A stretch of 64,000 bases of DNA from Amphiscolops sp. MND2022. Its lineage: Eukaryota. The notes under the pieces are model-generated. The model was not told where the DNA came from and searched no databases. It saw nothing but the letters and a program-made list of their open reading frames with translations. The DNA lies in assembly GCA_964187785.1 (NCBI GenBank), contig OZ076409.1:72294001-72358000 (forward strand), read 5' to 3'. Positions 2,355 to 63,645 of this stretch are shown one piece after another. Position 1 is the first letter of the stretch. Every line of letters starts with the position of its first letter. The translations under genes and the position numbers were made by a program.

Positions 2355-2395
2355 AGTACATTCCATCTCCCCATCGGGGGAGATGAGAATGTACT
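2355..2395. other. Long imperfect inverted repeat; type example of the GTACATT internal hairpin
   Basis: AGTACATTC-CATCTCCCC-ATCG-GGGGAGATG-A-GAATGTACT. Homologues at 16388, 19076, 28359, 32450, 37220, 47954 and 52725. Confidence 0.9.
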
Positions 2396-3243
2396 TTTCA
2401 AAAGCCAAAAACTTCGAATTTTAAATCTTTTGTAACATTGTATGTAACTGTTGAAACGATGAACGAATAAAAATGCTTCTAGTACCTTCATCAATTTTTG
2501 CTTCAGCTCCTATTTCTGCAGAACAAAACCAAAAGACACACTTACAGCAGTTAAGTTCGATTGTATAACTCAGTGATATAAAGGTATGACTGAGGAAGTT
2601 CACAAGTTGTTTCAAAAGTTTCCGGCCTTCCAAAATCATGAAACGTCCACACAACCAAGATAGCAAGTGAAAGAATGCTGAATGAACCTTATTAGATGAG
2701 ATAAATAATGTGTGGAACTTGCCATTATCTCAAGATGACGTTGATTTATGATCTTTTAAGGATAGTTCGATATGTGACCACAATAGTGGAAAACTTATTA
2801 CTATTTGAAGAACACCGTGGAAAGCGTTCAGAAAGGACAGTATATTTGTTTCGAGCATGCATGCGTGTGTTCCTTTGGTGACGTTAGCTTAGTGTACATG
2901 ACGGAGGTATTCGAGAGATTATGATAGAGTTTACTCACAAGTCTTTGTTTTTTAAACTTTCTATGCCGTTGAGTACATTCGTAAGGTACATCCATCCCCT
3001 TCTCTGGGAATGTACGTTTGCCAAATGACTGTCATCCAAAATTCGTAATCCGGACGAGTTTAACTACATAAACATGTGATGAGCGTTTTCAATTCACAAC
3101 CGAATAACATTTTTTTCTCGAAAATGATGATGGTTTTGATTTTGATGTCTTCTACTTTTATCATCATGCAAACGACCTTACCATGTCTCTCTTCTGTCGT
3201 CATTTGTACAACGCCACATAGCGTTCCGACGCCCACCGTCTGT

Positions 3244-3263
3244 GGGCATGCCGAGGCATGCCC
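3244..3263. promoter_or_regulatory. Subterminal 20-bp palindrome GGGCATGCCGAGGCATGCCC (p53-response-element-like); 17 copies in the window
   Basis: Copies start at 3244, 4636, 18023, 19318, 28591, 33347, 38110, 40098, 42083, 44090, 48851, 53615, 55607, 57610, 59602, 61587 and 63574. It matches RRRCWWGYYY x2 with no spacer at 19 of 20 positions. The motif is seen directly; its function is inferred. Confidence 0.5.
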
Positions 3264-3320
3264 TTCGACGACGTATGCCAAATGAGCCATACCCGCACTC
3301 TGGAGTGCGGTAGCGGCTAG

Positions 3321-4707
3321 GTGGTTGGGGCGGTCCCCAGAACGCACAAGGAGGCGCGGGGAGGGTCCTGCGCCGACGTAGAATAATTTCATATAATACT
3401 AGTATCCTACATGGGTGTTTTAGAAGCGATTTTGGAATCTAACCGTAGGATTTGGATAATTTTTTGCATGCGGCCATAACTCGAAATTCTAAGAACTTTT
3501 TCCTACTGTCATTTTCACCGCAAATTGTTTTTTGTTGACTTATGGCCAAAAAACCGGAAATAACGTCCTTTTTAGACGTTATATCCGAAGTGTCGTCATA
3601 ACTTTTTTCCAGGGCATGCTAGCGTTCTCGTTCACTTTTACACTTAATTGCAGCATCTCAAAATACAACTGGTGGAAAATTTTGGTTGCATTCGGATCAC
3701 CCCCCACCGAGATAGAAGGGTTCCCCCCTCCAGTTTTACCCCCCAAATTTGCCAAAAAGCCAATTTTGAGCATGAAGCCGAGGGTTTAGCGTACCCGCAC
3801 CCTGTTGATGTTTTGTTGTACGTTTTGAGGTCAATCTGACGACATGTGAGGTTTTCACCCCCAACCCCCCCTGGGACCGGAAATGACACTTTTTTGTGTT
3901 TTTCGGCAGAATTTAGCCTGTTTCATTATTAGGCAGTCGTTTTAGGGACTCGTAGCAGGATATCGAAAGTGAAATACAACCTTATCACAACCCAGTGACA
4001 ACATGTTGGCCACTTGGAGGTATCATCATGACCGGAAGTGGGGTCAACCCCCCTTTTTGTGACCGCTTTTTGACCTTGTGCACCAAAATGCCAACAACTT
4101 GAGGCCTAATGACGCATTCAAATCTGTACAAAGATAGAATGTTAGACAACCGAAGTCCCGGAAGATCTTTAGCATATACCGGAAGTTACCCCCCATGACC
4201 GGAAGTTACCCAATGTGACCGGAAATGGTCCAAAAATTAATGTAAAGTTAATTTTTTCACCATTTCAAGACCACTTCGTTGAACATTTTCATTCCCAAAA
4301 CTAGCGTACTGGCTTGTTTTGCTGAAATTATGGAAATTGATGAGCTCTATCACCCCCGATAGCCTTCGAAGTTGACCTTGCGTCAACTTTGGAGGCTATC
4401 GATTCTGAAAATGAACAACAGAGTTCATTGTTGCTCTCGTTTTTTTCCGTTGTTTTTCCTCAAACATTCTTGAGACATAAAAATGGCCGTTAGTTGAAAT
4501 CAATATTTAGCCCATGTTATAGCTGGAGCAGCGAAGCGTTACACAGACTAGTGTGGTTTTGAAATTACATTATTTGAATTAACAACTGACCGTCTTAGTC
4601 AACTCCACACATTCATACCAACGCCCACCGTCTGTGGGCATGCCGAGGCATGCCCTTCGACGACGTATGACGAATCCACTCCAACGACACCCGCAGTCCT
4701 CAGCTAG
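3321..4707 (+). mobile_element. U2: 1387-bp unit, family C (related to U7)
   Basis: GTGG head with hairpins, CCGGAA cluster, GATAGCC-type hairpin at 4357-4401, palindrome at 4636-4655, CTAG end. Confidence 0.6.
4158..4226 (+). promoter_or_regulatory. Phased CCGGAA(G/A) motif cluster (ETS-like or iteron-like)
   Basis: CCGGAA at 4158, 4179, 4199 and 4219 (20-21-bp spacing). Spacing is retained in U7 at 17564, 17584 and 17604. Function is inferred only. Confidence 0.4.
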
Positions 4708-5783
4708 GTGGTTGGGGCGTTATTCCCCACGAAGTTCGCGGCCGCGGGAGACGGGACCCGCGGACCGCCCATCCAATGCAAAAATATACACTCTAAACAG
4801 CACCATTATAAACACGATCTCGAAAATGAACCGTAGGATTGTCTTGAAATTTTGCATACAGATAGAAGAGAAAATTCTAAGAACTTTTTCCTGCTGGCAC
4901 TTTTCCGAAAAAAATGTCCTTCATGGGTTTTTTCGGGTTTTTTTGGTTTTTTCTCATCTTTCTCATCTTTGATTAATCAATCACCGAATCAAAGGCCATT
5001 TTCAGCATGAAGGAATGCCCGTAGCAGCAAAGTGCACTTTTACAAAAATCATCAACGGTCAACGGTCTTTCGAACGGTCCAAAAAAATTTCCCCCCGGGG
5101 GCATCCAAAGTGCCGAAAAGTGCCAAAATATTTTTTTGGTCTGAATCATTCTGAAGAAATTGTTGATTTGAGCAGCAGGAACGGTCCGCACGGTCTCAAA
5201 TTGTAAGGGCAAAAATTGTCAGCGTTCAATGGCGGTTCCAAAAATATAAGTCAGTCACCTGTAGGAGTTGTAACAAAAAATCGATTTTTGGGTAATATGG
5301 CATGTTGAGTGGTTGGATGAGAAATACCCGTAACATGTTGAGTTTGATTTGATGCAGCAGTGGTTGCAGCTGCAGCAAACGTGAAAATGATAAAAGGGCT
5401 GGGATATATCACATGCACAAAGCAATGTTGCCATGGGGCTTTCCTTGTGCCGCAAAATGCCTCAATGCGATCATTATGTTTTTCCAAATGGGGTCGCAAA
5501 ACTAATTGTCACCGGTGTTCCTAGCGTTGCGCAGCAACTCGCAGGAACAACGGGGCTCTCCGAACGCAAAACGCAAGGCGCCCTTTCGTTGATTTGACGG
5601 CAGTCGCAGTTGATATTTTTTTGAATAAGTGATGAAATGTATCGTTGAATCCCAGAACATGTAACAAAAAAAAGGAAGGTGGAATTTCAACACATTGGTT
5701 TGTTGCTGATTTCACGTAAGCAGCAAACTTAATCAGCAACTCCTCAACTCCTCTCTCGTGGTTTGTTTAGCCTCCAGCGCTAG
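4708..5783 (+). mobile_element. U3: 1076-bp unit, family A short form
   Basis: Apparently identical to U11 (offset 16807). Shares its head and its last ~30 bp with long unit U5. Hairpin at 5512-5553. Confidence 0.65.
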
Positions 5784-6259
5784 GTGGTCAGGGGTGTTAC
5801 CCGTCAAAAATACTGCGAGGCCGGGGAGGGACCCGGGACCGAGCATATTATATAAGGATCAAATTCTACCTCTCCGACACTCGGTCATCTGGAGACGATC
5901 TCGAAAATGAACCGATAGGATTGGCTGAAAATTTGCACACAGATAGAAGAGCCAATTCTAAGAACTTTTTCCTGCTGACGTTTTGCCGGTTTATAAACAT
6001 CTTCATGGTTTTTTTTGGGTTTTTTTGGTTTTTTTAACCTTTTTTATCATTGATTAATCAATCACCGAATCAAAGGCCATTTTCACCATGAAGCAACGCC
6101 GATAGAGGCAAAGTGCATCTCTATGAAAATCATCAACGGTCAACGGTCTTTTGAACGGTCCAAAAAAATTGCCCCCTGGGGGCATCCAAAGTGCCGAAAA
6201 GTGCCAAAATAATTTTTTTGACTGAATCACTTGCATCAAATTGGTGATTTGAGCAGCCG

Positions 6260-7800
6260 GAACGGTCCGCACGGTCTCGGACCATAAGGGTAAAAAGTGT
6301 CAGCATTCAATGATGGTTTCAAAAATACAACTCATTCACCTGTAGGGGTCCTAATAAAAAAGTCGATTTTTTGGGGTGTATCGCTTGATGAGCAATGATG
6401 ACATTTTTTATACAGTACTTTTCATTCAATTACTCAACACGCAGCACCAGTAGCAGCGGAAGTCATATTTATGAAAAAGATTAGGGGGCTAGGGTCTATC
6501 CACGGTACTACCGCAAAGTAGGCCTGGGGCAATGATTGTGCCAAAAAATGCCTTATAGTGAAGAATGATTTTTTGCAAATCAGCTCATTTTTACAAACAT
6601 GTAAATTCCTCGTCAACAACGGTCCGCACGGTCTCCGACAATAAATTCAAAAAATGTCAGTGAGCTATGGTGACATGGAAAATGACATTGGATAAGCTCT
6701 GGGGGTCCTCTGAAAAAATTTGAATTTTTTGAGTCACGGTCCGAGTTCATCTCATACTTTGTATGAACTATTCATAATCATGTTACTCATAACTGAGTAC
6801 AGATAGCACCGTGGGTCATCTTTATGAAAATGAACATTGGCCAGTGGTCTAGCGATTGAGTGCAGAAAATATACCTTAGTGGCCATAGTGAAAGAAAAAA
6901 ATTCCAAGAAGTGGTATTTTCAATTTTTCAAGTCGACTCGGAGTCACAAAATAGTGATTTTCTCTTCAGGAACGGTCCGAACGGTCTCGGACCATAAAGT
7001 CAAATTTCGTCAGTGTATCATGGTGGCGTCCAAAAACCCATCAGAACAAGTGTAGGTAGCTCCTGAACGAATTTCGAATTTTTACGTGGGTCAGAGAGTT
7101 ATGGTGTCACATTGTAACAACATTTCGGGTATGCATATCTCCTGCCAGAGTACAGATAGCATCATGGGTCATCTTTTTGAAAATGAACGTGGGCCACTGG
7201 TCTATCGAATGGTTTTAAAAAATTTTCAATAAGTGCTGCATGGCGTGAATAAAATGCCAAAATGTTGTATTTAGCATTTTTTTGCACGACTCGGACCTAC
7301 AAAAAGCCCATATCTGCTCCACCAACGGTCCGTACGGTCTTCGACCATAAGCTCAAAAAGTGTCAGTGTGCTATGGTGACGCCCAAAAACCCATCAGTAC
7401 ACTGGTAGAGTGCTTCTGAAAAATTTTGGTGTTTTCACGTGAGTCCGAGAGTTATTGAGAGTTTTGTTGTCACATCGTAACTACATTTCGGTTACGTATA
7501 TCTCCTGACAGAGTACAGATAACAACATGGGTCATCTTTTGGAAAGTGAACGTGGGCCACTGGCCTACCGAATGGTGATAAAAAGTTTTCACCAGTTGCT
7601 ATACGGAGTGATGAAAGTGCTTACATGTGTTACATTGCATTTTTTCGAGCGACTCGGACTTACAAAAACCTCATTTGCCCGCCAACAACGGTCTGCACGG
7701 TCTCCGACCATAAGGTCAAAAACTTTTCGTGAGCTATGGTGACGCCCAAAAACCCATCAGTTTAGCTGTAGCATGCTTCTGTAAAAATTTGGACTTTTCG
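6260..7800. repeat. Internal diverged tandem repeat, period 353-363 bp
   Basis: AACGGTCYGHACGGTCT at 6261, 6618, 6971, 7324 and 7687. Confidence 0.88.
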
Positions 7801-9642
7801 TGCTCACAAAGTGAGATTTCGAGTTTTGAAAAACAATTTTTCAACCAAAAAACATGTTTTTCAGTGCGCAAAACCAATTTTTATATCACAATAGTCACAT
7901 AAAATGTTGTTTTGCATAACATGGCACGTGAATAGCATGAGGAAAGTGCCCACTGTGATTTTGGAGTCATTTTCAAAAAATCAGCTGCCATTAGACGTTA
8001 CACAAGAGAAAATGATACTTTACATATCGATACTTTGGTTGAGTGGAAAATAGCTATAGTGCTTTTTCGGTCAATCAAGACTCTTTTTTGTTCACAACCA
8101 AGTGTACAGTTGACGTGAAACACATATTGACCTTCCACAATGGTTATATTGTGATTTTGATTGCCAAAAGCCCAGTTGACAAACAAAAATCCAACCAAAA
8201 ATTTGTTTCCAATTCAATTTTTGAAGTATAGGACCGCCAATTTTTGCCCACAAACATCAACTAACATATTTTCTTCGTCCAATGGCATCGAAAAAACGCA
8301 ACTGGGCATTGACATGACGCTGACACTATCATTCGAGTAGTCATGGGCAACAATATTTACTAATCGAAAGGAAAATTCGTCGAAAATTCATACAACATCA
8401 CTTTTTTGGCGGAGTCGAATTGACAAAATGAAGCTTCATCACCAACTATTGGCTTCTAATGCAACCCACTGGCACTCTAATTTAGGAAAATGATGTTTAC
8501 ATAACTTTCAAGGAAGTTTATCAGAATCTGAGGTACCTAAAAATATCATACTGAATAGACATAATACTTCAAAATTGGCATTTTTCAAGATGTGTCACCA
8601 CTTTTTCGGTATCGGCGGTCCTATTGACACTGGTTTTGGTCGAACACTAAACATGAGTATCAACCAAGGTGGATACCAGACTTGTGAAAACAATACAAGG
8701 ACTTTGGACATGTCAAAAGTAGTGATGAGAAGAGATATTATCCAAAACTTCTTGTTATATGTCATATTCCTTTCCACCATTCTAATCGATGCTTGTCGGT
8801 TAAGGTATTAACGCCCAACAACAAACTCAGTGACAGCAAACAAGTCGAGTACCGTTATAAAAAGTGTTTACAATACCTGTTTCCCCGTTCTTGACACATT
8901 TTCCACCGTGTTCGTTCTTAACATGTAAAAATTTATCGCCTAACACCCAATTTTTGACAGGTCGAAATTTCGATTTTCGTCTTTTGAACACCACTATTGT
9001 GTCTGACGTAACCTGTGGCCTCCAAAACACTCAAAGATAAATGTATGACTGGTATAAAAGGCTTCAGTGGCTTGTAAGCCCCGATAACATGTTTTGCAAA
9101 GAAATATTCAAGTACTAAGTGAAAATTTCGAAGTCACATTGGAACATTAAAAACAGAATACATGAAAAACTTACCTATTTTCCGTCAATTACTATTAATT
9201 TATTATCAGTGTTGCGAATATGAGGTCTATACAGGGGTCTATATGAAAACTGTGGTGCATAAAGCATTCTGTTACACAAAACTTACCATAGCACCAAAAA
9301 AACTTCACTTTATTTTTTCCATTTTATTTGAATAAGTTGATCAACTAAACATCAATCAGCAGTTGAATTAGTAGGGTTATACAATTGTGGATGTGTTTCA
9401 AAGTCTTTGACTTTCCCGTTGTTCCAAACTCCTTTGTTACTGCTGAAAAGAGTCATATGTTTTACAAGCAATGTTCTTTAAAAGACAATTAGCAAAGACC
9501 GAAGCAACTTTACAAAAGGTAAAAAATTCTCAATATGTCTTTCAGTACTCGAATTTGGGTGAATGTATAGATTGGATTTGCATTTTTATAAAGACATTAT
9601 AACTGAATCTAGCATTTTTATAAAGAGCTTAAAAAAAAATTC

Positions 9643-9689
9643 GTGATAGCCTTCCAAGTTGGCCTTCGGCCAACTTGGAAGGCTATCAC
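9643..9689. other. Perfect inverted repeat (22-bp stem, 3-nt loop); type example of the GATAGCC internal hairpin
   Basis: GTGATAGCCTTCCAAGTTGGCC-TTC-GGCCAACTTGGAAGGCTATCAC. Imperfect homologues at 4357, 14383, 17762, 26298, 39726, 41711, 43701, 55232, 57224, 59227, 61213 and 63201. Confidence 0.92.
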
Positions 9690-10675
9690 TACAAACATCA
9701 AAAAACAATAATCCCTCTTCTTCCTGATTAGTCGTGGACAGTATTGTTGAGTCTTCCACTGTGTCTGTATTTGATAACATGTAACAAGGTGACACTTTAA
9801 TTTCGCTAAAGCTTATCATCACTGAATTCAAACACAACATTTTTCTTGGTGTCTGTCAAAAATACCTAAACAAATCTAAACATTCAAACTCTATGAATGC
9901 TTTGTGGTATGTCCAGTCGTTTTACTATGTCCTCCGTTATTGGCTTGAGGAACCCCGCATCCCCTCCACCTGACAATACGTTACATCTTCTGTTGAAAGC
10001 TTTCATTAGTAGCGTCATATTGCCAACAACTTCTAATGGAGTGTCAGCATTCAAAATTATGTAAAGAAAGGTATTATTCATGGTAATCAGATTGTGAAAA
10101 AAAACTTACCAAAAACAAATGAAAAAAAGTTCTGCGGCATACATAACACAAAAAGTCTTTTGAAAAGTTTTACAATGCTACTTTTTTAAAGTTTCTCATC
10201 GTTTGTTGTTTAATTTCTGAAGGGTAAGTCAAAATTTCACCTCTTCTCGTATCTCATCCCATTAGAACGGGGTACTATGGGCTGTTTTTATTGAATACTA
10301 ACCAACTCAGTGGCCATCACTTTGTATCCTAACATTACCAAGGATTTGAAGAAATCGCTCTGCATTAGTGACAAATTCATTTGTAGGAAAGTTTCATCGT
10401 CACTGATGTTATAGCAGTGGTGTTTCGAGGTTTGCATCACCTTGCATGATCAACGGAGTCTGCTTCAACGGAAGGCTCAAAATACATTATCGTGGTTTCA
10501 ACGGCATTCATTGTTGTTAATTCTGTGGCATGCTGGTGATGAATTTTATAGTTGATTCCATGACAAATTCAACAAAAACAGGTAGCTGTTTTTTTGTGTC
10601 ATACTTCAAAAACAAACTTTCAACCGGTTTGTTTAGGCCTCTACCTAGCAGTGCTCTAAATTGCCCCATCGCTAG

Positions 10676-13600
10676 GTGGTTGGGGCGTTATTCCCCACGA
10701 AGTTCGCGGCCGCGGGAGACGGGACCCGCGGACCGCCCATCCAATGCAAAAATATACACTCTAAACAGCACCATTATAAACACGATCTCGAAAATGAACC
10801 GTAGGATTGTCTTGAAATTTTGCATACGGATAGAAGAGAAAATTCTAAGAACTTTTTCCTGCTGGCACTTTTCCGAAAAAAATGTCCTTCATGGGTTTTT
10901 TTGGGTTTTTTTGGTTTTTTCTCATCTTTCTCATCTTTGATTAATCAATCACTGAATCAAAGGCCATTTTCAGCATGAAGGAATGCCCGTAGCGGCAAAG
11001 TGCACTTTTACAAAAATCATCAACAGTCAACGGTCTTTCGAACGGTTCAAAAAATTTTCCCCCCGGGGGCATCCAAAGTGCCGAAAAGTGCCAAAATATT
11101 TTTTTGGTCTGAATCATTTTGATGAAATTGTTGATTTGAGCAGCAGGAACGGTCCGCACGGTCTCGGACCATAAGGTCAAAAATTGTCAGTGAGTTATGG
11201 TGACGACCAAAATGACATTGGTTGAGCTGTAGGAGGCCTCTGAAAAAATTTGAATTTTTTGAGTCTACAATCCGAGCTGAACTGTTACGTATTATGAACT
11301 TTTCAGTACTATGTTGCCAATGACCGAGTACAGATAGATGCATGGGTCAGCCTTATTGAAATGAACATTGGGCACTGGGCTACCGGTTGAGTGCAAAAAT
11401 TATAGCCTAGTTGCTGTAGTCGAAGAAAAAAATTCTCAGAAGTGTTACTTTCAATTTGTCATGTTGACTCGGAGTTACAAAAAGGTGATTTTGTCGCCAA
11501 CAACGGTCCGAACGGTCTTGGACCATAAAATCAAAAATTGTCAGTGTGCTATGGTGACGCCCAAAAACCCACCAGAACATGCGTAGGATGCTTCTGAAAA
11601 ATTTTCGAAATTTTACGTCGGCCCAAGAGTTATTGTGTTACATCGTAACAACTTTTCGTGTATGCATATCTCCTGACAGAGTACAGATAGCATCATAGGT
11701 CATCTTTTTGAAAGTGAACGTGGGCCACTGGTGTATTGCATGGTTATAAAAAATTTTGACTAAGTGCTGCATGGCGTGAATAATATGCCAAGATGTGGTA
11801 TTTACGATATTTTAGCACGACTCGCACTGACAAAAAGCCTATTTCTGCCCCAGCAACGGTTCGAACGGTCATCAAGTATAAGGTCAAAAAATGTCAGTGT
11901 GACATGATGGCGCCTAAAAACCCACCAGAACATTGGTAGGAAGCTTCTGGAAAAATTTCGATTTTTTACGTGGGCCCGAGAGTTATGATGTTACATCGTA
12001 GCAACATTTCGTGTATGCATATCTCCTGACAGAGTACAGATAGCATTATGGGTCACCTTTTTGAAAAAGAACGTGGACCACTGGTCTATCGATTGGTTGT
12101 AAAAAGTTTTCAATCACTGTTGCACGGCGTGAATAAAATGCCAATATGTGGTATTTAGCATTTTTTTGCACGACTCGGACCTACAAAAGTCCTATTTCTG
12201 CTCCACCAACGGTCCGTACGTTTTTCGACCATAAGGTCAAAAAGTGTCAGTGTGCTATGGTGACGCCCAAAAACCCATCATTACACTTGTAGAGTGCTTC
12301 CGAAAATTTTTGGAATTTTTAGGTGAGTCCGAGAGTTATAGAGAGTTATGTTGTCACATCGTAACTACATTTCGGGAATGTATATCTCCTGACACAGTAC
12401 AGATACCAACATGGGTCATCTTTTGGAAAGTGAACGTGGGCCACTGGCCTACCGAATGGTGATAAAAAGTTTTCACCAGTTGCTACAGGGAATGATAAAA
12501 GTGCTTACATGGGTTACATAGCATTTTTTCAGGCGACTCGGACTTACAAAAAGCTCATTTGCTCGCGAACAACGGTCTGTATGGTCTCCACTCATAGGGT
12601 CGAAAATTTTTCGTGGGCTATGGTGACGCTCAAAAACCCATCAGTTCACTTGTGGGATGATTCTGTAAAAATTTAGTGTTTTCGTGCAGACTATGTTACA
12701 TATTACATTGGGAACCGTGTTTTTTTCTCACCAAAATCATGTTTCTGAGTGCCCAAAAACAATTTTTAAAGCCCAGTAGCCACCTAAAATGTTCTTTTGC
12801 ATAACATGGGATGTGAATACCGTGAAGAAAGTGCTCACTGTGGATTTGGAGTTATCTCGACAAAATCAGCTGCCATTAGACGTTACATTACAGAAAATCG
12901 TACCTTACATATCGATTCATGGGTTGAGTAAAAAACAGCTAAAGTTCTTTTTCAGTCAATCAAGACTCTTTTTTGTTCACAACCAAGTGTACAGCTGACG
13001 TCGAACCCATTTTGACCTTCCACAATGGTTATAATGCGATTTTGAGGGACAAAAGCCTCGTTGACCAACAAAGTTCCAAGATGAAATTGCTTTCCAAATC
13101 ATTTTTTGAAGTATAGGAACGCCATTTTTTGCCGACAACCATCAAATATCCACTTCTCTTGGCCCAGTGGCTTGTGAAAAATACACCTGGGCATTGACAA
13201 GGCACATGGACTTTAATTCGAGTAGTCATGTGCCACAACATTTGCTAATCGATAGCAAATTTTGTTGAAAATTGATACAACATCACATTTTTGGTGGACT
13301 CGAAATGACAAAATGGAGCTTCAGCAGCAACTATTGGCTTTTAGTGCAACTCACTGGCACTGTAATGTAGGAAAAAACGGTTTACAGTAGTTTCATGCTA
13401 CTTTTTCAGAATCTGAGGTACATAAAGTATCATACTGAATAGACATATAACTTCAACATCGGAATTTTTCCGGATGTGTCACCACTTTTGTGGTATCAGC
13501 GGTCCTACCAACAGTGTTTTTGATCTAACACTAAACCCGAGGATCAACCAAGATGTATATCAGACTTGTAAAATCAATGCAAGGACTTTCGACATGTCAA

Positions 13601-18099: not shown

Positions 18100-19386
18100 G
18101 TGGCCGGAAATTTTTTTTTTCATCAAAATCTTTGCCATTGGGGGAGGGGCCCCGGATGGCCAGTAGTACGGCATAGCTCCCTACGGAATCCAGGCAGAAA
18201 AAACGTGATTTTGGAAACTAGCCGTCAGAATTTGCTCAAATTTTGCATACGGCTTCCTATAACAATCCTAAGAACTAATCCCTACTGGCATTTTGCCCAA
18301 AAAACGCAAAAAGTTGGTCAAAATCTTAGTTTTTTGGTCAAAAAATGGCAATTTTTCGAAAAAAAAATTTTTCAGAGACAATTACTCGTAACTGGTTCAC
18401 CCAGCGCAAAAACGCCTAGCTGATTTATTGTTGGGCACTTCATGAGGAGTGCGTATACAAATTTTTGTCCAGATCGGAAAAAAAATGACTAAGTATTAGC
18501 CGGAATTCGGACGCATTTTTTCGCAAATTTTTGAAAACCTAGTCTATCTCTGCCGTTTTTTGCCCAGATTTTTTTCCAGGTCCTCTCCTAAAGGCCTCCC
18601 CTGGCCGGTTTACTTCCCAGAAAAACCATTTGGCCCTAAATACGGAGTTTCAGCGTTCTAGCATTCCCGGGCGAAAAGATGTGGGACTTAGAAAAAATTC
18701 AAAATTTTTCAAAAAAATTTTTTTTCGTTTTCCGGCCCCCCAATGAAGGGGAACGACCCCCCAACGAGGATTATTGGTGAATTCACGTGGAAAGGCCTTG
18801 TTTTGTGGAGCAAATTGCCGTTTAGAGCGACTTTTTATCTTAACTTGACGTTGACCTCTGTCGTTTTGAATTTGATATTAGTATGCGTTGAGCATGTGAA
18901 AAGTTGATGATTTCAGTTGTTCTCTCGTGTTCAAGCCATTGAGATACAAGCGGTAGTGATCAAAATGTGATTTATCGCAATTTGATGGTGTTTTTGGTGT
19001 ATTTTGATTCTTTTAAATAAAAAGTTGTTCTTTATATATTTGGTGTATTGATTCAAATGAACAAGAAACAGTTGAGTACATTTCATCTCCCCCCTTGTGG
19101 GGGAGATGAGTATGTACCCGCTAAATGACACGCACAATGGCCCAATTTTACTTTTATGCGACGTTTACAAGGCTTTTGCGCAAGCCCACTAATATTTAGA
19201 CTGGTTTCCTTTTCTTTTACTCCAAAATTTTCCGTACTAACCACCTTACGCACCACCAGCTCATCGTAACATCTGTAACGCCAACGCCACATACTCTCAC
19301 TAACGCCCACCGTCTGTGGGCATGCCGAGGCATGCCCTTCGACGACGTATGCCAAATAGCGCCACTGGGCGCCCAATTTTGTCTAG
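18100..19386 (+). mobile_element. U8: 1287-bp unit, family D-like
   Basis: GTGG head with conserved box, GTACATT-type hairpin at 19076-19117, palindrome at 19318-19337, CTAG end. Confidence 0.55.
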
Positions 19387-53691: not shown

Positions 53692-55678
53692 GTGGGCGGG
53701 GGTAATTCCCCAACAAAAAAATCGGCCGGCGGGTCGGGTCCTGCCGGCCGTCCAAAATCAAAATCCTCCTAGTAGAAAACGGCATGTCAAACGAGCTATT
53801 TTTTTATTTAACCATACGAATTTCACCATTTTTTGCATGCGGCCCTGAAATGGCCATACGAGACGAAGTTCCTGCTGACGTTTTGCGATGTAAATGTTTT
53901 ATAAAAAGTTATGGCCGATTTGTCATTCACCTAGAAGGGTAAAATGAGGAAAATTTTAACAAAGTCGCTGATAACTCAAAATGTGGTAATTTTTGGACTT
54001 TGACTGTGAAACAAGCTTGGAACCTTCATTTCGTGGCTGGGGCATTGGACTGAACACAAAAGATGTAAAGTTTTTACGTTTTTTGAAAATTCGACATTTT
54101 TGAAATTTTTTTCACTACTATCAGTACCCCATATGTCAAAAACACCTCAGAAAAATATTTTTATTTGCTTTAAATTGGAAACCTTGGTATCCATGGTTTC
54201 TGTCGGAACCTACTCGCAGCCAAACACCCAACAGTTTGCATCCAATGTGAAAATAAAAATTTTTTCGGGGTCATAAGCGTTTCACAAGGATTTCTCAACT
54301 TAGTATTAATTTACAAAATGGTCATTTTGAACATAATATTTTCATCGAGGCTTGTCGGCTATAGCCTTAATGTTCTAGAACGGTCCCACTGGCAACGTAG
54401 CAACCATTTATAGTAATATAAAAGGTTAAAAAATTTTTTTCACCCGGTCTTCAGTCATTTTTCAGACATTCGGAACATAACTTAGAAAATTTTCGACCCA
54501 AATACCCATTTTTTGTCAGGTCGAAAATTAAAATTCAGCTATTAAAGCAAAATTATTTACTCTGACGTAACCAGTGGGGCCCATGATACTCAAAAACACC
54601 ATTGGCACTGGTACCAATGGCTCCAATAACATATGAGTCGCGATAAGACGTTATTTTGAGCAATACGTCTCAATTGAGGTAAAGATCTCGCAAGCCAGCG
54701 ATCACTGTGAAATGTAAATTCATTAAAAATTTACTCATTTTCGTCAATCACCATGTGCACAGAGTGCGTAGGGTGAGTTCCAGCACTCTAATGAGGTTTT
54801 TGAAGGCATCGGGTTGCTCAAGGGGTGGTATGAGACATTTTTTTCCTATATACTACTGTATTTTCCAATATTTTTAGCCCAATATCTGGAAATACAAACT
54901 TGACAAAATACTTTCAACTACTTTATTCAAAGGTTACAATATAGATGAACACTGTGGTTGATCAGAAACTTTCATCTCTTTCGTTTTCCGAAATATTTCC
55001 CTTCACATGTGTTATATTTTTAGCAGAATAAAAAATCGAAACTGAAATATACGCTATTTTGCTAATATAGAATCGCAATGATTGTGCCTAAAAACTCTTT
55101 AAACACTTCTAACGCAACCTTACGCACCCGAAATGATCGAAAATGCTATTCACAATTGTGACATGTGCTCTTTCTACGATCCTGGCTGGACAAGGTTTGC
55201 ATATTTTTCAAGTACCTGTCTGCTGAATCTTGTGATAGCCTTTTAAGTTGGCCTTGTGTCAACTTGGGAAGGCTATCACTTCAAACAACCATCAACAAAA
55301 ATAATTTTTGTTTATTGGATATTACAGTTGATTCCTTTTTTCGTGATTCTATATTACCGTTAGTATATTCCATGAGGTCACCTTACGATTGCATTGAGAC
55401 TTTGATAAAAACCTATGAACTCAAAGTCACATTTATATATTTTTTTGCCCAAAAAAATCATCAAAAACATCTATAATATATAAAATAGAGTCTTTAACAT
55501 TTTTACGTTTCAAGTTTCTGCCGTTATTAAGCCAATCAACTTCCTACAGCCACGCTCTCTGTCATTCTGTACAACGCCACATAGTGTTGCGACGTGCACG
55601 GTCTGTGGGCATGCCGAGGCATGCCCTTCGACGACGTATGCCGAATACCGCGGGCCTACGCCCGCGCTCCCCGGCTAG
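53692..55678 (+). mobile_element. U21: 1987-bp unit, family B 2-kb form
   Basis: Near-identical to U23 (offset 3995). Hairpin at 55232-55279. Confidence 0.65.
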
Positions 55679-57686
55679 GTGGGCGGGGAAATTTCACCCC
55701 GTTTGTATTCGGCCGACGGGTAGGGTCCTGGCGGCCGACGATCCGCCTTAAGCTAGCGGTATGTAGCAGAAATTGCAAAAAAAAGACCTAAAATTTAATC
55801 TAACCATTAGAATTTGCTCAAAATTTGCATGCGGCCCTCAAATCCTATTGCAAGACGAAGTTCCTGCTGACGCTAAGCGTTCTATAAACTTTATAAAAAG
55901 TTATGGCCAATTTTTTGTTCAAAATTTCAACATTTTTGGGAAATTTCTAATTTTTCACTTAATATCTCAAAATGTGTTAATTTTTGAACTTTGACTGTGA
56001 AACAAGCTTGGAACCTTCATTTCGTGGCTGTGGCATTGCACTGAACACAAAAGATGTAAAGTTTTTACATTTTTCGAAAATTCGAGATTTTTGAAATTTT
56101 TTTCACTACTATCAGTACCCCATATGTCAAAAACACATCAGAAAAAAATTTTTATTTGCTTTAAATTGGAAACCTTGGTATCCATGGTTACTGTCGGAAC
56201 CTACTCGCAGCCAAACACCCAACAGTTTGCATCCAATGTGAAAATAAAAATTTTTTTCTGGGTCATAAGCGTTTCACATGGATTTTACAACTTAGTTTTA
56301 ATTTACAAGTTGGTCATTTTGAACACAATATTTTCATCGAGGCTTGTCGGCTATAGCCTTAATGTTCTAGAACGGTCCTACTGGCAACGTAGGAACCATT
56401 TATAGCAATAGAAAGTTTTAAAAAAATATTTTCACCTAGTCTTCAGTCATTTTTCAGTCATTCGGAACTTAACTTAGAAAAATTTCGACCAAAATACCCA
56501 TTTTTTGTCAGGTCGAAAAATGAAATTAAGATTTTCAAGCAAAATTATTAACTCTGACGTAACCCATGGGGCCTATGATACTCAAAACAACGATTGACAC
56601 TGGTATCAATGGCTCCAATAACATATGAGTCGCGATAAGACGTTATTTTGAGCAATACGTCTCAATTGAGGTAAAGATCTCGCAAGCCAGCGATCACTGT
56701 GAAATGTGATTTCATCAAAAATTTACTCATTTTTGTCAATCACTATGTGCACAGAGTGCGTAGGATGAGTTTCAGCACTATAATGAGGTTTTTGATGTAA
56801 TCGGCCTGCTCAAGGTTGTGTATGAGACATTTTTTTCCCATATAGTACTATATTTTCCAAAATTTTTAGCCCATTATCTCAAAAACCTAACTTCGCAAAA
56901 TGCTTTCAACTACTTTATTCTAAGGTTAGAATATGAATGAACACTGTGGTTGATCAGAACCTCTCAATTTTTTTTGTTTTCCGAAAAAATACCTTCGCAT
57001 GGGTTACATTTATGGCAGAAGAGAAAGCAGAAGATAAAAAATACGCTATTTTGCTAAGATAGAAACGCGATGATTGTGCCTAAATACCCTTTAAATACTT
57101 CTAACGCAACCTTATGGACCCAATATGATTGGAAATACCGTTCACAGTCCTCACATGTACTCTTTCTACAATCCAGACTGCACATTTTTTGAAAATTTTA
57201 CATGTAGCTTTAAACTGATACTTGTGATAGCCTTTTAAGTTGACCTTGTGTCAACTTGGGAAGGCTATCACCACCAAAAACTATAAACAAAACTACCATT
57301 TGTTAATCGGATTTTGCTGTCGATGCCTATTTTCGTGATTGTATACTACCGTTAGTATCTTCCATCATGTCAGCTGACGATAGCATGCAGAGTTTGAAAA
57401 AATACCTATGAACTCGAAGACATTTTTGTTCATTATTTGGTAAATAATTTTATTTCTAAATAATAAATAACAACTTCTAACCTTTGAATACTATCACATT
57501 TGTTTTCTCTTCCGTTATCAGTCTTCCGTCACCCATGATCTGAGCCTATGTCATGACCCTGTGATTTGTATAACAACGCCACATACCAACATCAACGCCC
57601 ACCGTCTGTGGGCATGCCGAGGCATGCCCTTCGACGACGTATGCCAAATAAGCCTTACCCGCACTCTGGAGTGCGGTAGCAGCTAG
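55679..57686 (+). mobile_element. U22: 2008-bp unit, family B 2-kb form
   Basis: Hairpin at 57224-57271; body related to U18. Confidence 0.65.
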
Positions 57687-59673
57687 GTGGGCGGGGGTAA
57701 TTCCCCAACAAAAAAATCGGCCGGCGGGTCGGGTCCTGCCGGCCGTCCAAAATCAAAATCCTCCTAGTAGAAAACGGCATGTCAAACGAGCTATTTTTTT
57801 ATTTAACCATACGAATTTCACCATTTTTTGCATGCGGCCCTGAAATGGCCATACGAGACGAAGTTCCTGCTGACGTTTTGCGATGTAAATGTTTTATAAA
57901 AAGTTATGGCCGATTTGTCATTCACCTAGAAGGGTAAAATGAGGAAAATTTTAACAAAGTCGCTGATAACTCAAAATGTGGTAATTTTTGGACTTTGACT
58001 GTGAAACAAGCTTGGAACCTTCATTTCGTGGCTGGGGCATTGGACTGAACACAAAAGATGTAAAGTTTTTACGTTTTTTGAAAATTCGACATTTTTGAAA
58101 TTTTTTTCACTACTATCAGTACCCCATATGTCAAAAACACCTCAGAAAAATATTTTTATTTGCTTTAAATTGGAAACCTTGGTATCCATGGTTTCTGTCG
58201 GAACCTACTCGCAGCCAAACACCCAACAGTTTGCATCCAATGTGAAAATAAAAATTTTTTCGGGGTCATAAGCGTTTCACAAGGATTTCTCAACTTAGTA
58301 TTAATTTACAAAATGGTCATTTTGAACATAATATTTTCATCGAGGCTTGTCGGCTATAGCCTTAATGTTCTAGAACGGTCCCACTGGCAACGTAGCAACC
58401 ATTTATAGTAATATAAAAGGTTAAAAAATTTTTTTCACCCGGTCTTCAGTCATTTTTCAGACATTCGGAACATAACTTAGAAAATTTTCGACCCAAATAC
58501 CCATTTTTTGTCAGGTCGAAAATTAAAATTCAGCTATTAAAGCAAAATTATTTACTCTGACGTAACCAGTGGGGCCCATGATACTCAAAAACACCATTGG
58601 CACTGGTACCAATGGCTCCAATAACATATGAGTCGCGATAAGACGTTATTTTGAGCAATACGTCTCAATTGAGGTAAAGATCTCGCAAGCCAGCGATCAC
58701 TGTGAAATGTAAATTCATTAAAAATTTACTCATTTTCGTCAATCACCATGTGCACAGAGTGCGTAGGGTGAGTTCCAGCACTATAATGAGGTTTTTGAAG
58801 GCATCGGGTTGCTCAAGGGGTGGTATGAGACATTTTTTTCCTATATACTACTGTATTTTCCAATATTTTTAGCCCAATATCTGGAAATACAAACTTGACA
58901 AAATACTTTCAACTACTTTATTCAAAGGTTACAATATAGATGAACACTGTGGTTGATCAGAAACTTTCATCTCTTTCGTTTTCCGAAATATTTCCCTTCA
59001 CATGTGTTATATTTTTAGCAGAATAAAAAATCGAAACTGAAATATACGCTATTTTGCTAATATAGAATCGCAATGATTGTGCCTAAAAACTCTTTAAACA
59101 CTTCTAACGCAACCTTACGCACCCGAAATGATCGAAAATGCTATTCACAATTGTGACATGTGCTCTTTCTACGATCCTGGCTGGACAAGGTTTGCATATT
59201 TTTCAAGTACCTGTCTGCTGAATCTTGTGATAGCCTTTTAAGTTGGCCTTGTGTCAACTTGGGAAGGCTATCACTTCAAACAACCATCAACAAAAATAAT
59301 TTTTGTTTATTGGATATTACAGTTGATTCCTTTTTTCGTGATTCTATATTACCGTTAGTATATTCCATGAGGTCACCTTACGATTGCATTGAGACTTTGA
59401 TAAAAACCTATGAACTCAAAGTCACATTTATATATTTTTTTGCCCAAAAAAATCATCAAAAACATCTATAATATATAAAATAGAGTCTTTAACATTTTTA
59501 CGTTTCAAGTTTCTGCCGTTATTAAGCCAATCAACTTCCTACAGCCACGCTCTCTGTCATTCTGTACAACGCCACATAGTGTTGCGACGTGCACGGTCTG
59601 TGGGCATGCCGAGGCATGCCCTTCGACGACGTATGCCGAATACCGCGGGCCTACGCCCGCGCTCCCCGGCTAG
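57687..59673 (+). mobile_element. U23: 1987-bp unit, family B 2-kb form
   Basis: Copy of U21. Hairpin at 59227-59274. Confidence 0.65.
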
Positions 59674-61658
59674 GTGGGCGGGGGTAATTCCCCAACAAAA
59701 ATTACGGCCGGCGGGTTGGGTCCTGCCGGACGTCAAATAGCAAAGAATATCTAGTAGGAAACGGCGACACAGAATCGCGATTTTTAAATCTAACCACAAT
59801 TTTTTGGACTTGGAGTGCATGCGGCCCTGAAATGCCCATACGAATCGAAGTTCCTGCTGACATTAAGCGATTGAAATAATATATAAAAAGTTATGGCCCA
59901 TTTTTCACTCACAAAGAAGGGTAAAATGAGGAAATTTTTAACAAAGTCGCTGATAACTCAAAATGTGATAATTTTTGGACATTGACTGTGAAACAAGCTC
60001 GGAACCTTCATTTCGTGGCTGTGGCATTGCACTGAACACAAAAGATGTAAAGTTTTTACATTTTTTCAAAATTCGAAATTTTTGAAATTTTTTTCACTAC
60101 TATCAGTACCCCATATGTCAAAAACGCCTCAGAAAAAATTTTTTATTTGCTTTAAATTGGAAACCTTGGTATCCATGGTTTCTGTCGGATCCTACTCGCA
60201 GTCAAACACCCAACAGTTTGCATCCAATGTGGAAATAAAAATTTTTTCGGGGTCATAAGCGTTTCACAAGGATTTCTCAACTTAGTTTCAATTTACAAAT
60301 TGGTCACATTGAACACATTATTTTCATCGAAGCGCGTCAGATACCGCCCTAAAGCTCACGAACGGTCCTACTGGCAACGTAGCAACCATTTATAGTAATA
60401 TAAAAGATTAAAAAAATTTTTTCACCCGGTCTTCAGTCATTTTTCAGTCATTCGGAACTTAACTTAGAAAAATTTCGACCAAAATACCCATTTTTTGTCA
60501 GGTCGAAAAATCGAATTCAGATTTTTAAGCAAAATTATTAACTCTGACGTAACTCATGGGGCCCATGATACTCAAAACAACGATTGACACTGGTATCAAT
60601 GGCTCCAATAACATATGAGTCGCGATCGGACGTTATTTTGAGCAATACGTCTCAATTGAGGTAAAGATCTCGCAAGCCAGCGATCACTGTCAAATGTGAT
60701 TTCATCAAAAATTTACTCATTTTTGTCAATCATTATGTGCACAGAATGCGTAGGGTGCGTTTCAGCACTATAATGAGATTTTTGAATGCATCGAGTTGCT
60801 CAAGGGGTGGTACGAGACATTTTTGTCCCATATACTACTGTATTTTCCAAAATTTTTAGCCCAATATCTGGAAATACAAACTTGACAAAATACTTTCAAC
60901 TACTTTATTCAAAGATTACGATATAGATGAACACTGTGGTTGATCAGAAACTTTCATCTCTTTCGTTTTCCGAAATATTTTCCTTCGCATGTGTTATATT
61001 TGTATCAGAAAAAAAATCGAAACTGAAAAATACGCTATTTTGCTAATATAGAATCGCAATGATTGTGCCTAAAAACTCTTTAAACACTTCTTACGCGACC
61101 TTACGCACCCAAAATGATCGAAAATGCTATTCACAATGATGACATGTGCTCTTTCAACGATCCTGGCTGGACAAGGTTTGCATATTTTTCAAGTACCTGT
61201 CAGCTGAATCTTGTGATAGCCTTTTAAGTTGGCCTTGTGTCAACTTGGGAAGGCTATCACATCAAACAACCATCAACAAAAATAATTTTTGTTTATTGGA
61301 TATTACAGTTTATACCTTATTTCGTGATTCTATACTACCGTTAGTATATTCCATGAGGTCACCTTACGATTGCATTCAGACTTTGATGAAAACCTATGAA
61401 CTCAAAGTCACATTTATATATTTTTTGCCCAAAAAAATCATCAAATACATCTAATATATATAAAATTGAGTCTTTAACTTTTTTACGTTTCAAGTTTCTG
61501 CCGTTATTAGGCCAATCAACTTCCTACAGCCACGCTCTCTGTCATACTGTACAACGCCACATAGTGTTGCGACGTGCACAGTCTGTGGGCATGCCGAGGC
61601 ATGCCCTTCGACGACGTATGCCGAATACCGCGGGCCTACGCCCGCGCTCCCCGGCTAG
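59674..61658 (+). mobile_element. U24: 1985-bp unit, family B 2-kb form
   Basis: Head as U16. Hairpin at 61213-61260. Confidence 0.65.
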
Positions 61659-63645
61659 GTGGGCGGGGGTAATTCCCCAACAAAAATTACGGCCGGCGGG
61701 TTGGGTCCTGCCGGACGTTCAAATAGCGCGAAGCATCTAGTAGAAAACAAGGAGTCCTGAAACAGCGATTTTAAAATTGAACCGTTAGAATTTGGTTTTA
61801 GATTGCATGCGGCCCTAAAATCCCCATACGAATGGAAGTTCCTGCTAGCGTTAAGCGATTGAAATAATATATAAAAAGTTATGGCCTATTTTTGGGTCAC
61901 CGAGAAGGTCAAAATGAAGAAAATTTTAACTAAGTTGCTGATAACTCAAAATGTGTTAATTTTTGGACTTTGACTGTGAAACAAGCTTAGAACCTTCATT
62001 TCGTGGCTGTGGCATTGCACTGAACACAATAGATGTAGAGTTTTTACATTTTTTGAAAATTCGACATTTTTGATTTTTTTTCACTACTATCAGTACACTA
62101 TATGTCAAAAACACCTCTGAAAAAAATTATTATTTGCTTAAAATTGGAAACCTTGGTATCCATGGTTTCTGTCGGAACCTACTCGCTGCCAAACACCCAA
62201 CAGTTTGCATCCAATGTGAATTTAAAATTTTTTTCGAGGTCATAAGGGTTTCACAAGGTTTTCATAACCTAGTATTAAACTACAAACTGGTCATTTTCAA
62301 CATAATATCTTTGTCGAGGCATGTCGGATATAGTCCTATTGCTCACGAACGGTCCTACTGGCAACGTAATAACCATTTATAGAAATGTAAAGTTATAAAA
62401 AAATTTTTTCACCCGGTCTTCAGTCATTTTTCAGTCATTCGGAACTTAACTTAGAAAAATTTCGACCAAAATATCCATTTTTTGTCAGGTCGAAAAATCA
62501 AATTAGGAATTTTAAGCAAAATTATTAACTCTGACGTAACCCATGGGGCCCATGATACTCAAAACAACGATTGACACTGGTATCAATGGCTCCAATAACA
62601 TATGAGTCGCGATAAGACGTTATTTTGAACATTACGTCTCAATTGAGGTAAAGATCTCGCAAGCCAGCGATCACTGTGAAATGTGATTTCATCAAAAATT
62701 TACTCCTTTTTGTCAATCACTATGTGCACAGAATGCGTAGGGTGCGTTTCAGCACTATAATGAGGTTTTTGAAGGCATCGAGTTGCTCAAAGGATGGTAT
62801 GAGACATTTTTGTCCCATATACTACTGTATTTTCCAAAATTTTTAGCCCAATATCTGGAAATACAAACTTAACAAAATACTTTCAACTACTTTATTCAGA
62901 GGTTACAATATAGATGAACACTGTGGTTGATCAGAAACTTTCATCTCTTTCGTTTTCCGAAATATTTCCCTTCGCATGTGTTACATTCGTAGCAGAAAAA
63001 AAAATCGAAACTGAAAAATACGCAATTTTGCTAATATAGAATCGCACTGATTGTGCCTAAAAACTCTTTAAACACTTCTAACGCAACCTTAGGCACCGAA
63101 AATGATCGAAAATGCTATTCACAATGGTGACATGTGCTCTTTCTACGATCCTGGCTGGACAAGGTTTGCATATTTTTCAAGTACCTGTCAGCTAAATCTT
63201 GTGATAGCCTTTTCAGTTGGCCTTGTGTCAACTTGGGAAGGCTATCACATCAAAAAACCATCAACAAAAATAATTTTTGTTTATTGGATCTTACAGTCGA
63301 TACTTTTTTTCGTGATTCTATACTACCGTTAGTATATTTCATCAGGTCACCTTACGATTGCATTCAGTCTTTGATAAAAACCTATGAACTCAAAGTCACA
63401 TTTATATATTTTTTGGCCAAAAAAACATCAAAAATATCTAAAATATATAAAATAGAGTCTTTAACATTTTTACGTTTCAAGTTTTTGCCGTTATTAAGCC
63501 AATCAACTTCCTACAGCCACGCTCTCTGTCATACTGTACAACGCCACATAGTGTTGCGACGTGCACAGTCTGTGGGCATGCCGAGGCATGCCCTTCGACG
63601 ACGTATGCCGAATACCGCGGGCCTACGCCCGCGCTCCCCGGCTAG
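61659..63645 (+). mobile_element. U25: 1987-bp unit, family B 2-kb form
   Basis: Head as U17. Hairpin at 63201-63248. Confidence 0.65.

Follow-up and report, generated by a model that had tools for sequence, protein, structure and literature searches.

A length-proportional internal hairpin in a clade of Helitron-like transposons, and its possible role in second-strand synthesis

Introduction

What fixes the position of a hairpin in transposons of widely differing length? The question is raised by a 64,000-nucleotide stretch of the genome of Amphiscolops sp. MND2022 (GenBank assembly GCA_964187785.1, contig OZ076409.1, positions 72,294,001 to 72,358,000, forward strand), hereafter the window, which is filled by a mixed array of non-autonomous Helitron-like units. 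A preliminary description proposed that each unit carries one long hairpin at a fixed fraction of its length from the 3′ end, as expected if units replicate as circles with a nick origin at the junction and a second-strand origin or terminator at the hairpin. How Helitrons copy their second strand is of wider interest: Helraiser transposes its plus strand via double-stranded circles, and the priming of the minus strand is left open between lagging-strand synthesis and a circovirus-like primer (PMC5876387). Rolling-circle plasmids use a separate hairpin origin (PMC5714925). Here, we show that the hairpin obeys a length-scaled position rule in most clusters from a sample of the genome, and we argue that it probably marks the start of second-strand copying.

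Results

Internal hairpins of the window

Units are delimited by junctions of the form CTRG/GTG[GC] (n=25 in the window; the slash marks the boundary), a pattern that doubled as the selection criterion for units and of which one variant turned up later.

1..64000, +: head-to-tail mixed array of non-autonomous Helitron-like units, 24 complete (1,058-4,892 bp) and two partial
3317..3324, +: example of a junction CTRG/GTG[GC], one unit's 3′ end and the next unit's 5′ start
3321, 4708, 5784, 10676, 15409, 16693, 18100, 19387, 20457, 21515, 22591, 27305, 28665, +: unit starts, first part
33425, 38187, 40170, 42161, 44167, 48929, 53692, 55679, 57687, 59674, 61659, 63646, +: unit starts, second part

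The interior of every unit was scanned for folds with DNA parameters, leaving out the first 150 and last 130 nt, and the relative position f was taken as the distance from the 3′ end divided by unit length. The strongest interior stem-loop falls at f 0.199-0.237 in all 24 complete units (r=0.9988), in keeping with the range of about 0.20-0.24 first proposed, and the distances and lengths given at that time agree with ours within 1-3 nt (we obtain U10 227/1058, U2 329/1387, U16 421/1983, U14 954/4760 and U4 1010/4892).

2355..2395, +: hairpin T2 (GTACATT), partial unit U1, 946 nt from the 3′ end
4357..4401, +: hairpin T1 (GATAGCC), U2, f=0.237
5510..5555, +: hairpin T3, U3, f=0.234
9643..9689, +: hairpin T1, U4, perfect stem, -26.5 kcal/mol, f=0.206
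14383..14430, +: hairpin T1, U5, f=0.212
16388..16430, +: hairpin T2, U6, f=0.222
17762..17804, +: hairpin T1, U7, f=0.225
19076..19117, +: hairpin T2, U8, f=0.226
20191..20236, +: hairpin T3, U9, f=0.228
21264..21312, +: hairpin T3, U10, f=0.215; the plus strand folds (z -3.3), the minus strand does not (z -1.2)
22317..22362, +: hairpin T3, U11, f=0.234
26294..26352, +: hairpin T1, U12, f=0.209
28359..28397, +: hairpin T2, U13, f=0.211
32450..32492, +: hairpin T2, U14, f=0.201
37220..37260, +: hairpin T2, U15, f=0.199
39726..39773, +: hairpin T1, U16, f=0.212
41711..41758, +: hairpin T1, U17, f=0.214
43701..43748, +: hairpin T1, U18, f=0.221
47954..47996, +: hairpin T2, U19, f=0.200
52715..52769, +: hairpin T2, U20, f=0.199
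55224..55283, +: hairpin T1, U21, f=0.213
57224..57271, +: hairpin T1, U22, f=0.219
59219..59278, +: hairpin T1, U23, f=0.213
61212..61261, +: hairpin T1, U24, f=0.213
63200..63249, +: hairpin T1, U25, f=0.212

The best hairpins reach -13.2 to -26.5 kcal/mol, as against -6.5 to -12.4 kcal/mol for the runners-up, and plus-strand folding of six hairpin windows gave z-scores of -3.3 to -11.3, with none of 200 shuffles equally stable. The terminal hairpins at both unit ends, which often match the internal one in strength, are a distinct feature. The loops GCGAAGC, GCGCAGC and C-GCA-G recur among the T3 hairpins (e.g. 21264-21312) and in the elements D1, D3 and E7 from elsewhere in the genome; GNA triloops form unusually stable single-stranded DNA (ssDNA) mini-hairpins.

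The position rule across the genome

The genome measures 1.07 Gb, and a 36-nt subterminal 3′ motif from region 3230..3320 has 1,952 exact matches in it (reversed control, 0); the clade is present here in about 2,000 copies or more. Stretches fetched from C1, C2, C3, C5 and C10, together with the window, which itself lies on C1, yielded 295 units of 1.0-34.1 kb in 46 clusters; three stretches with Helentron-type open reading frames (ORFs) and no junctions were excluded from the unit set. One representative per cluster was scanned. The top interior hairpin lies in the band 0.194-0.237 in 40 of the 46 clusters (initially 41, before the element E6b was withdrawn), where 2.6 would be expected by chance, and hairpins ranked second to fourth fall in it only 6 times out of 138. 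A separate motif search recovered a known hairpin type in 261/273 small units, the other 12 being missed by the patterns, and every one of the 258 small units with a single hairpin motif has f between 0.200 and 0.238.

The fraction is confined to a band, as proposed, but it is not fixed: the fitted ratio drifts with length as f = 0.2017 + 25.6/L, from about 0.223 in units below 1.5 kb to about 0.204 in units above 10 kb. A weighted fit to 41 representatives (E6b and four unscorable clusters dropped, the second hairpin of D1 kept) gives a 3′ arm of 32 (25-41) nt plus the 5′ arm divided by 3.97 (3.90-4.05), with a symmetric scatter of 3.9%. It is because of the 32-nt offset that small units lie at 0.22 and large ones at 0.20.

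The rule also served for prediction. Hairpins were located in seven partly fetched autonomous elements, predictions were recorded, and the ends were then fetched; six of the seven predictions held, namely for E3 (23,130 bp, 0.206), E2 (25,747 bp, 0.212), E5 (22,723 bp, 0.206), E8 (23,047 bp, 0.205), E10 (27,044 bp, 0.194), and E4 (34,134 bp, 0.211). The proposed constraint of the two arms to about 4:1 is strongly supported, extending over a 33-fold range of length, 14 non-homologous top-ranked hairpin types and prospective tests. Among the six exceptions, D1 has its second-ranked hairpin at 0.206, a 4,380-bp single copy has lost its hairpin by deletion, and two units are interrupted by a 77-bp insert. 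Eight apparent outliers were rechecked and set aside as missed junctions, the 77-bp insert, a hairpin type underscored by the scanner, one hairpin deletion, and an autonomous unit.

That the pattern has no function and reflects shared ancestry, chance or an assembly artefact is an explanation to which we give next to no credence. Many of the small units are related, and the bootstrap intervals ignore this kinship; nevertheless, related units carry different hairpins, one hairpin type occurs at varied distances, the prospective predictions largely held, and units occur on several chromosomes. The length-scaled rule itself can be regarded as real with near certainty, and it is functional and position-dependent.

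Exchange, decay and strand preference of the hairpins

The picked hairpins belong to 15 unrelated sequence groups, 14 of them top-ranked. Because these 14 types are unrelated, recognition appears to be by structure. What small derivatives share with their autonomous parents is limited to the beginning of the 5′ arm and the final ~100 bp, the middle including the hairpin being unrelated, and a single type occurs at very different absolute distances from the 3′ end, as had been noticed before (T1, 304-1,021 nt; T2, 273-954 nt). On both counts, simple inheritance of the position is disfavoured.

Former hairpins can still be recognized in some units. The 4.76-kb family retains a decayed T2 about 330 nt from the 3′ end, and in U4 the terminal segment resembles that of a much shorter unit:

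2972..3015, +: decayed T2 relic, ~327 nt from the 3′ end, -6.7 kcal/mol
37837-37880 and 53342-53385: further copies of this relic
33065-33125 and 48570-48630: more decayed T2 relics
10375..10675, +: 300-bp 3′ end of U4, with homology to that of U9, a unit of 1.07 kb (20154-20456), score 250 vs a shuffled maximum of 137

Within this segment of U4 the T3 hairpin is decayed (~10410-10460, fold z -0.05), and a different, intact hairpin stands at 1,010 nt. Elsewhere, displaced copies of T1 are seen in E2 (834 nt, decayed) and E4 (~1,050 nt, near intact), and half of a T2 persists in E10 on the upstream side (f=0.757). Overall, three downstream relics are decayed, one is near intact and one upstream copy is half lost, so that displaced hairpins mostly decay. 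The idea of one hairpin per unit therefore holds for intact hairpins only, since long units also contain decayed relics of a second. Hairpins in place are under purifying selection: they carry 11 private mutations in 7,791 sites (1.4/kb), compared with 2.9-5.9/kb in the arms.

The stems also reveal a strand preference. Among non-Watson-Crick appositions, G.T outnumbers A.C by 25 to 6 distinct contexts (p=0.0009), which favours folding of the plus strand, and this strand is the more stable in 26 of 42 hairpins, against 8 for the minus strand; the hairpin thus lies on the strand that would be displaced, as a single-strand origin does. In eight T1 hairpins, covariation consists mostly of one-sided G.T changes, and both sides have changed in 3 of 20 pairs. 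These data bear on the suggestion that the hairpin forms a cruciform origin from which two unequal forks travel in opposite directions around a double-stranded circle until they meet at the junction, as in a 4:1 replichore balance. Such an origin would be scale-invariant, and several of the stems pair perfectly, their two strands folding equally well, but the G.T bias and bulges favour one strand, there is no clear switch in skew, and HUH (histidine-hydrophobe-histidine) chemistry is unidirectional, which makes this explanation very unlikely.

Autonomous partners and their proteins

The longest stop-to-stop frame in the window spans 198 aa, so there is no long ORF. A 2,377-aa Rep-helicase (RepHel) ORF was found inside a 13,675-bp unit with junctions identical to those of the window units. 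It contains the Pfam domains Helitron_like_N (E 5e-10) and PIF1 (E 6e-11) and a C-terminal GIY-YIG domain, and it matches the Helraiser chain with E 7e-20. A search with Helitron_like_N uncovered many intact frames of 2,300-2,600 aa, several of them on the array strand within a few Mb. The fusion of an HUH Rep to a Pif1 helicase in the autonomous partners places them in the Helitron-like RepHel superfamily, and a nick origin at the junction, as proposed, would fit an HUH protein encoded between the same termini. Readings of the array as a satellite, a viroid-like rod, a protelomerase site or a proviral segment were abandoned after the discovery of RepHel.

The second recurrent product, ORF2, belongs to a conserved Cys-cluster family and is found in 17/18 large representatives. 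Its predicted model (predicted local distance difference test score 80.7) resembles RPA, CST, RADX and the internal domain of Mcm10 (for the latter, Z 9.2, root-mean-square deviation 3.8, 118 residues aligned), although the C-terminal half was barely covered in the wide fold search; look-alikes in the Atlas are POT1, CTC1 and MEIOB, with a recognition score under the tool's threshold. On the strength of this model, ORF2 is predicted to be an ssDNA-binding protein with an oligonucleotide/oligosaccharide-binding (OB) fold, similar to RPA, CST and Mcm10. CST, RPA and Mcm10 recruit Pol alpha-primase. A Pfam search of 34 accessory ORFs gave nothing convincing. Some RepHels of the clade (P0015, P0017, P0018, P0024) also contain an OTU protease domain, which lies at the N terminus of the single protein scanned. 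The window units are, accordingly, non-autonomous members of a Helitron-like clade characterized by a RepHel with a C-terminal SLX1-like GIY-YIG domain and by an OB-fold gene.

The GIY-YIG domain has SLX1, a structure-specific nuclease, as its closest solved relative (E 5e-12). This relationship, together with hairpin sequences that are unrelated across families, would suit a scheme in which the domain cuts beside the hairpin and the strand snaps back to prime itself, as in rolling-hairpin replication, the polymerase having to reach the 5′ end only after junction closure. In D7, D3 and E7, however, where the hairpins are well placed, the catalytic motif seems to be degenerate (alignment by eye), and this weakens the scheme; trans-complementation is possible, but cutting would also sever the plus strand and call for an extra rejoining step. 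We consider nicking of this kind distinctly unlikely.

In the autonomous units where it was located, the hairpin lies outside the ORFs and folds on the sense strand, as might be expected of a fork pause site or an RNA-level signal (a terminator or processing site) whose position is secondary. Yet its place relative to ORF2 is not constant (upstream in 9 autonomous units, downstream in 5), the ratio holds even for 1-kb units without genes, and a pause or terminator predicts an absolute rather than a proportional distance. A signal of this sort is highly improbable.

Metagenomic relatives

A protein search returned 83 proteins, including RepHel with GIY-YIG on short contigs at 24-30% identity, whereas Helentron reached only E 5e-4 in the same search. 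The best 80 of 154 metagenomic matches, corresponding to 72 loci with no complete element among them, contain ORF2 in 8 loci. A 5′-like GC-rich stem with a motif of the type GGG-N-AGGG-N-CC stands upstream of RepHel in seven metagenomic loci and downstream in one; the bare pattern is unspecific (13 matches vs 9 for the reversed control), and only its setting discriminates. Two overlap joins include the 5′ end; their top interior hairpins place the 3′ end 43 and 32 nt short of where the contig runs out (f at least 0.2045 and at least 0.2055, respectively), fits that were noticed after the fact in near-complete elements with unseen true 3′ ends. A join of L168 and L143 was rejected as invalid. 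In distant relatives, the first base after CTRG appears to be T. In L100/L101, RepHel and the 5′ terminal hairpins apparently occupy opposite strands; a strong hairpin lies ~18.7 kb from these, and the contig stops short of the predicted end. L142, L157, L162 and L105 hold 3-5 extra ORFs, on both strands and without a Pfam family, and are gene-richer than the elements of the present genome. The viral contigs scanned contained no relative.

Termini, repeats and arrays

The remaining features of the window concern the unit ends and internal repeats:

3321..3376, +: 5′-terminal double hairpin with GGG-N-AGGG-N-CC motif, example
3230..3320, +: 3′-subterminal hairpins terminating in CTRG, example
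789..2139, +: tandem repeat of 336 bp, 3.8-4.0 copies, internal to the 5′ arm in the 4.76-kb family
30894-32164, 35654-36997, 46398-47664 and 51160-52509: other 336-bp repeat arrays
11466..12674, +: 353-bp internal tandem repeat, 5′ arm of U5, with related arrays in U4 and U12

Subterminal 3′ hairpins are present in most window units. The copy number of the 336-bp repeat is constant (3.8-4.0) across all five window members, and in most families unit length varies by only a few percent, as expected under a length constraint. The 5′ end of U13 has an exact 82-bp duplication of the 5′ terminal hairpin region (27305-27468). A conserved block ~100-200 nt past each junction (e.g. 4815-4900), common to otherwise unrelated families, is a candidate RepHel binding site. 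An Rfam search gave 0 matches.

Neighbouring units belong to the same cluster in only 117 of 274 adjacent pairs, and the arrays are therefore mixed rather than simple amplifications. All units seen are head-to-tail; no target duplication was seen, in material where filled and empty sites were not compared. Where an array or an insert begins, the preceding non-element DNA terminates in CTAG, CTGG or CTTG, the last being the target of IS91, and the 5′ flank is CTDG at 4/4 edges. We infer that the CTRG/GTG junction is both the nick site and the site of joining. Insertion 3′ of CTDG would place the CTRG end of each unit where it recreates the target, and mixed arrays would therefore grow. On C1, array motifs and many intact RepHel ORFs occupy one strand over ~6 Mb around the window (~70.4-76.5 Mb), possibly a megabase-scale block of centromeric or heterochromatic nature; smaller arrays are found on C1 at 3.5, 24.0, 29.5 and 38.1 Mb and near the ends of C2 and C3.

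Discussion

A model for second-strand priming

The reading that we somewhat favour over its denial takes the hairpin to be the place, defined by its structure, at which second-strand synthesis is primed on the peeled plus strand, with a position that keeps two syntheses in balance. Following Helitron biochemistry, RepHel would nick CTRG/GTG, stay on the 5′ end, and peel the plus strand 5′ to 3′ while a host polymerase refills the donor. The hairpin would emerge on the peeled strand at ~80% of unit length and be bound by the OB-fold protein and/or by the GIY-YIG domain acting as a structure sensor, and the minus strand would be primed there. The primed polymerase would travel to the 5′ end on open template at about 4 times the speed at which the fork unwinds the last 20%, and both syntheses would end together, at circle closure or strand transfer. 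Priming too early would make the copy stall at or melt the 5′ hairpins before the ends are joined; priming too late would lengthen the cycle. For a copying speed v2 and a fork speed v1, the cycle would be shortest with the hairpin at v2/(v1+v2), whatever the length, a value of 0.8 corresponding to 4:1. The 32-nt offset would represent the distance that exposes the whole hairpin: a clock that starts at full exposure would give a positive offset near half the stem plus a footprint. Of the two roles originally suggested for the hairpin, that of origin suits the data better than that of terminator: units terminate at CTRG rather than at the hairpin, the hairpin shows a preference for the plus strand, and members of the clade carry an RPA/CST/Mcm10-like gene.

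A related scheme moves the meeting to the closed circle, with the polymerase leaving the hairpin of a plus-strand circle leftward and RepHel, a 5′ to 3′ helicase, loading rightward, at speeds of 4:1, until their encounter at the junction licenses the next nick. It would yield the same ratio, the same strand and a similar positive offset, with polarities that fit Pif1, but it leaves unaccounted for the contrast between E4, which tolerates a near-intact hairpin downstream, and E10, whose upstream relic is half lost (few cases), and ssDNA circles of Helraiser, a member of a different clade, were inactive on transfection (PMC5876387). We regard it as unlikely.

Several observations weigh against priming at a position-dependent hairpin. 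The OB fold that ORF2 has in common with other proteins does not establish its function. The confidence intervals of the weighted fit treat related families as independent and are thus too narrow. Among the clusters, the multi-copy D2/D9 family has stronger upstream hairpins (f 0.24-0.27, that at 0.27 lying in a tandem repeat) besides candidates at 0.19 and 0.22, and a frameshifted 20.2-kb unit has only weak hairpins at 0.19-0.20. E6b (C1 ~3.59-3.61 Mb, L088/L071) is a prospective miss and the only clear off-ratio autonomous unit: its RepHel unit measures 18,814 bp with f=0.162, and an earlier count of it as a match (19,845 bp, 0.206) was withdrawn, since that span includes the variant junction. 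A third metagenomic prediction, made in writing, failed, the 5′ end being absent from L150 (f at most 0.191, weak hairpin). The minus strand folds better in the 8 hairpins mentioned above. Finally, the switch in skew or mutation spectrum that the preliminary description had suggested looking for was not found: along normalized arms, skew has no clear step at the hairpin and only a weak drop in GC skew in the 3′ arm, and private and low-frequency substitutions have no strand asymmetry or gradient by arm, although long single-strand exposure might leave one; mutation after insertion would dilute any signal in both checks.

As to E6b itself, its 3′ junction is mutated, and read-through to the next junction would yield 0.206; rescue by read-through is possible on the evidence of this one copy, as is coincidence. 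The element also holds a 3.2-kb segment of which there is no second full copy, with an ORF that is OTU-like by eye and that Pfam did not confirm.

For Helitron second-strand synthesis, the hairpin offers one candidate site whose position is predictable to ~4%, and the question can therefore be put to the test by moving a 45-nt hairpin. A cis-element that scales with length over a 33-fold range while its sequence has been replaced at least 14 times is unusual under any mechanism. The rule restricts how such elements capture or delete DNA, and it is of use in annotation, as the unseen ends of 23-34 kb elements were predicted.

Comparison with known systems

The clade is neither of the two established types of Helitron-like element (HLE1 and HLE2). 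In Rep+helicase trees, with one HLE1 row, four HLE2 rows and a long-branch warning, it stands apart from both at ~3 changes per site with support of 100/100, and the four HLE2 rows group apart from all clade rows. The units begin with GTG[GC], as confirmed by partner switches at junctions, and not with the 5′ TC of HLE1; they do have a 3′ hairpin followed by a CTRR-type end (CTAG in 31/44 and CTGG in 13/44 representatives), and insertion is not between A and T. The asymmetric terminal inverted repeats of 8-17 bp typical of HLE2 are absent, 41/44 representatives having no exact match of at least 6 nt and 3/44 one of 6 nt, below the cross-pair null. Neither DUF6570 nor an APE endonuclease occurs in the five clade proteins scanned, whereas DUF6570 was detected in both HLE2 controls. 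In the literature covered, which took in few subscription papers and lay outside Repbase and Dfam, we found neither a proportional internal hairpin nor an account of this clade, which seems to be unclassified so far. Nor is the hairpin general to Helitrons: in the one canonical HLE1 family of this genome (~9.9 kb), none of the top 8 hairpins lies near 0.2. That family (L172/L175, L176) has a ~3-kb palindromic minisatellite upstream of its ORF.

Taken together, there is a little less than an even chance, in our judgement, that we are dealing with an undescribed third lineage of rolling-circle transposons, present here and in unrelated metagenomic hosts, with a single-strand origin system of its own in which a hairpin of no fixed sequence, a priming factor akin to CST/RPA and a sensor akin to SLX1 take part. 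The 3.97:1 arm ratio would then be a kinetic ruler of gap-filling versus strand-displacement speed in vivo, constant between 1 and 34 kb and from host to host, and the second-strand origin would be the first to have been mapped in a eukaryotic transposon. Bacterial replichore balance and the mitochondrial heavy- and light-strand origins (OH/OL) likewise place a cis-site at a fraction of the replicon set by the timing of two syntheses; here, by contrast, the proportion is 4:1, the replicon is a transposon, and the hairpin sequences are freely exchanged over the whole range of lengths. We know of no length-proportional position for the single-strand origin (sso) of plasmids.

With HLE1 and Helraiser the clade has in common an HUH-Y2 Rep fused to Pif1, the 3′ subterminal hairpin, the CTRR-type end, and plus-strand polarity, and plant members of HLE1 are reported to carry RPA (PMC11417382). 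It differs in the 5′ GTG (TC in HLE1), in insertion after CTDG, in its two 5′ hairpins, in the C-terminal GIY-YIG domain, and in the proportional internal hairpin. With HLE2 (Helentron, Helitron2, DINE-1, HINE, proto-Helentron) it shares a large RepHel, a hairpin-bearing terminus on either side, tandem repeats inside the non-autonomous forms, and optional OTU and OB-fold genes, and a captured GIY-YIG is described for one moss HLE2 family (PMC11417382); it lacks the asymmetric repeats, DUF6570, the APE domain and insertion between T and T, and is separate in the tree.

The 'third clade' of Paramecium Helitrons is similar in its very large RepHel ORFs, its place outside HLE1 and HLE2, target-specific oriented insertion, internal satellites, and an ORF that is sometimes inverted. 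Compared by description only, its ends are CCAA and its targets telomeric repeats, and the main text makes no mention of GIY-YIG, nor does the section consulted describe an internal hairpin rule (PMC13085455). The bacterial IS91/ISCR elements, rolling-circle plasmids (with double-strand and single-strand origins, dso/sso) and the phiX174 single-strand initiation site (ssi) resemble the clade in the HUH nick origin, a tetranucleotide target without duplication, and a separate second-strand hairpin origin, but have no fused helicase (PMC5714925). Replitrons are likewise HUH transposons of eukaryotes that have short terminal motifs and insert in a set orientation; they are Y1 elements without a helicase, whereas the present clade encodes a RepHel of 2,300-2,850 aa with a fused Pif1 (PMC10288648).

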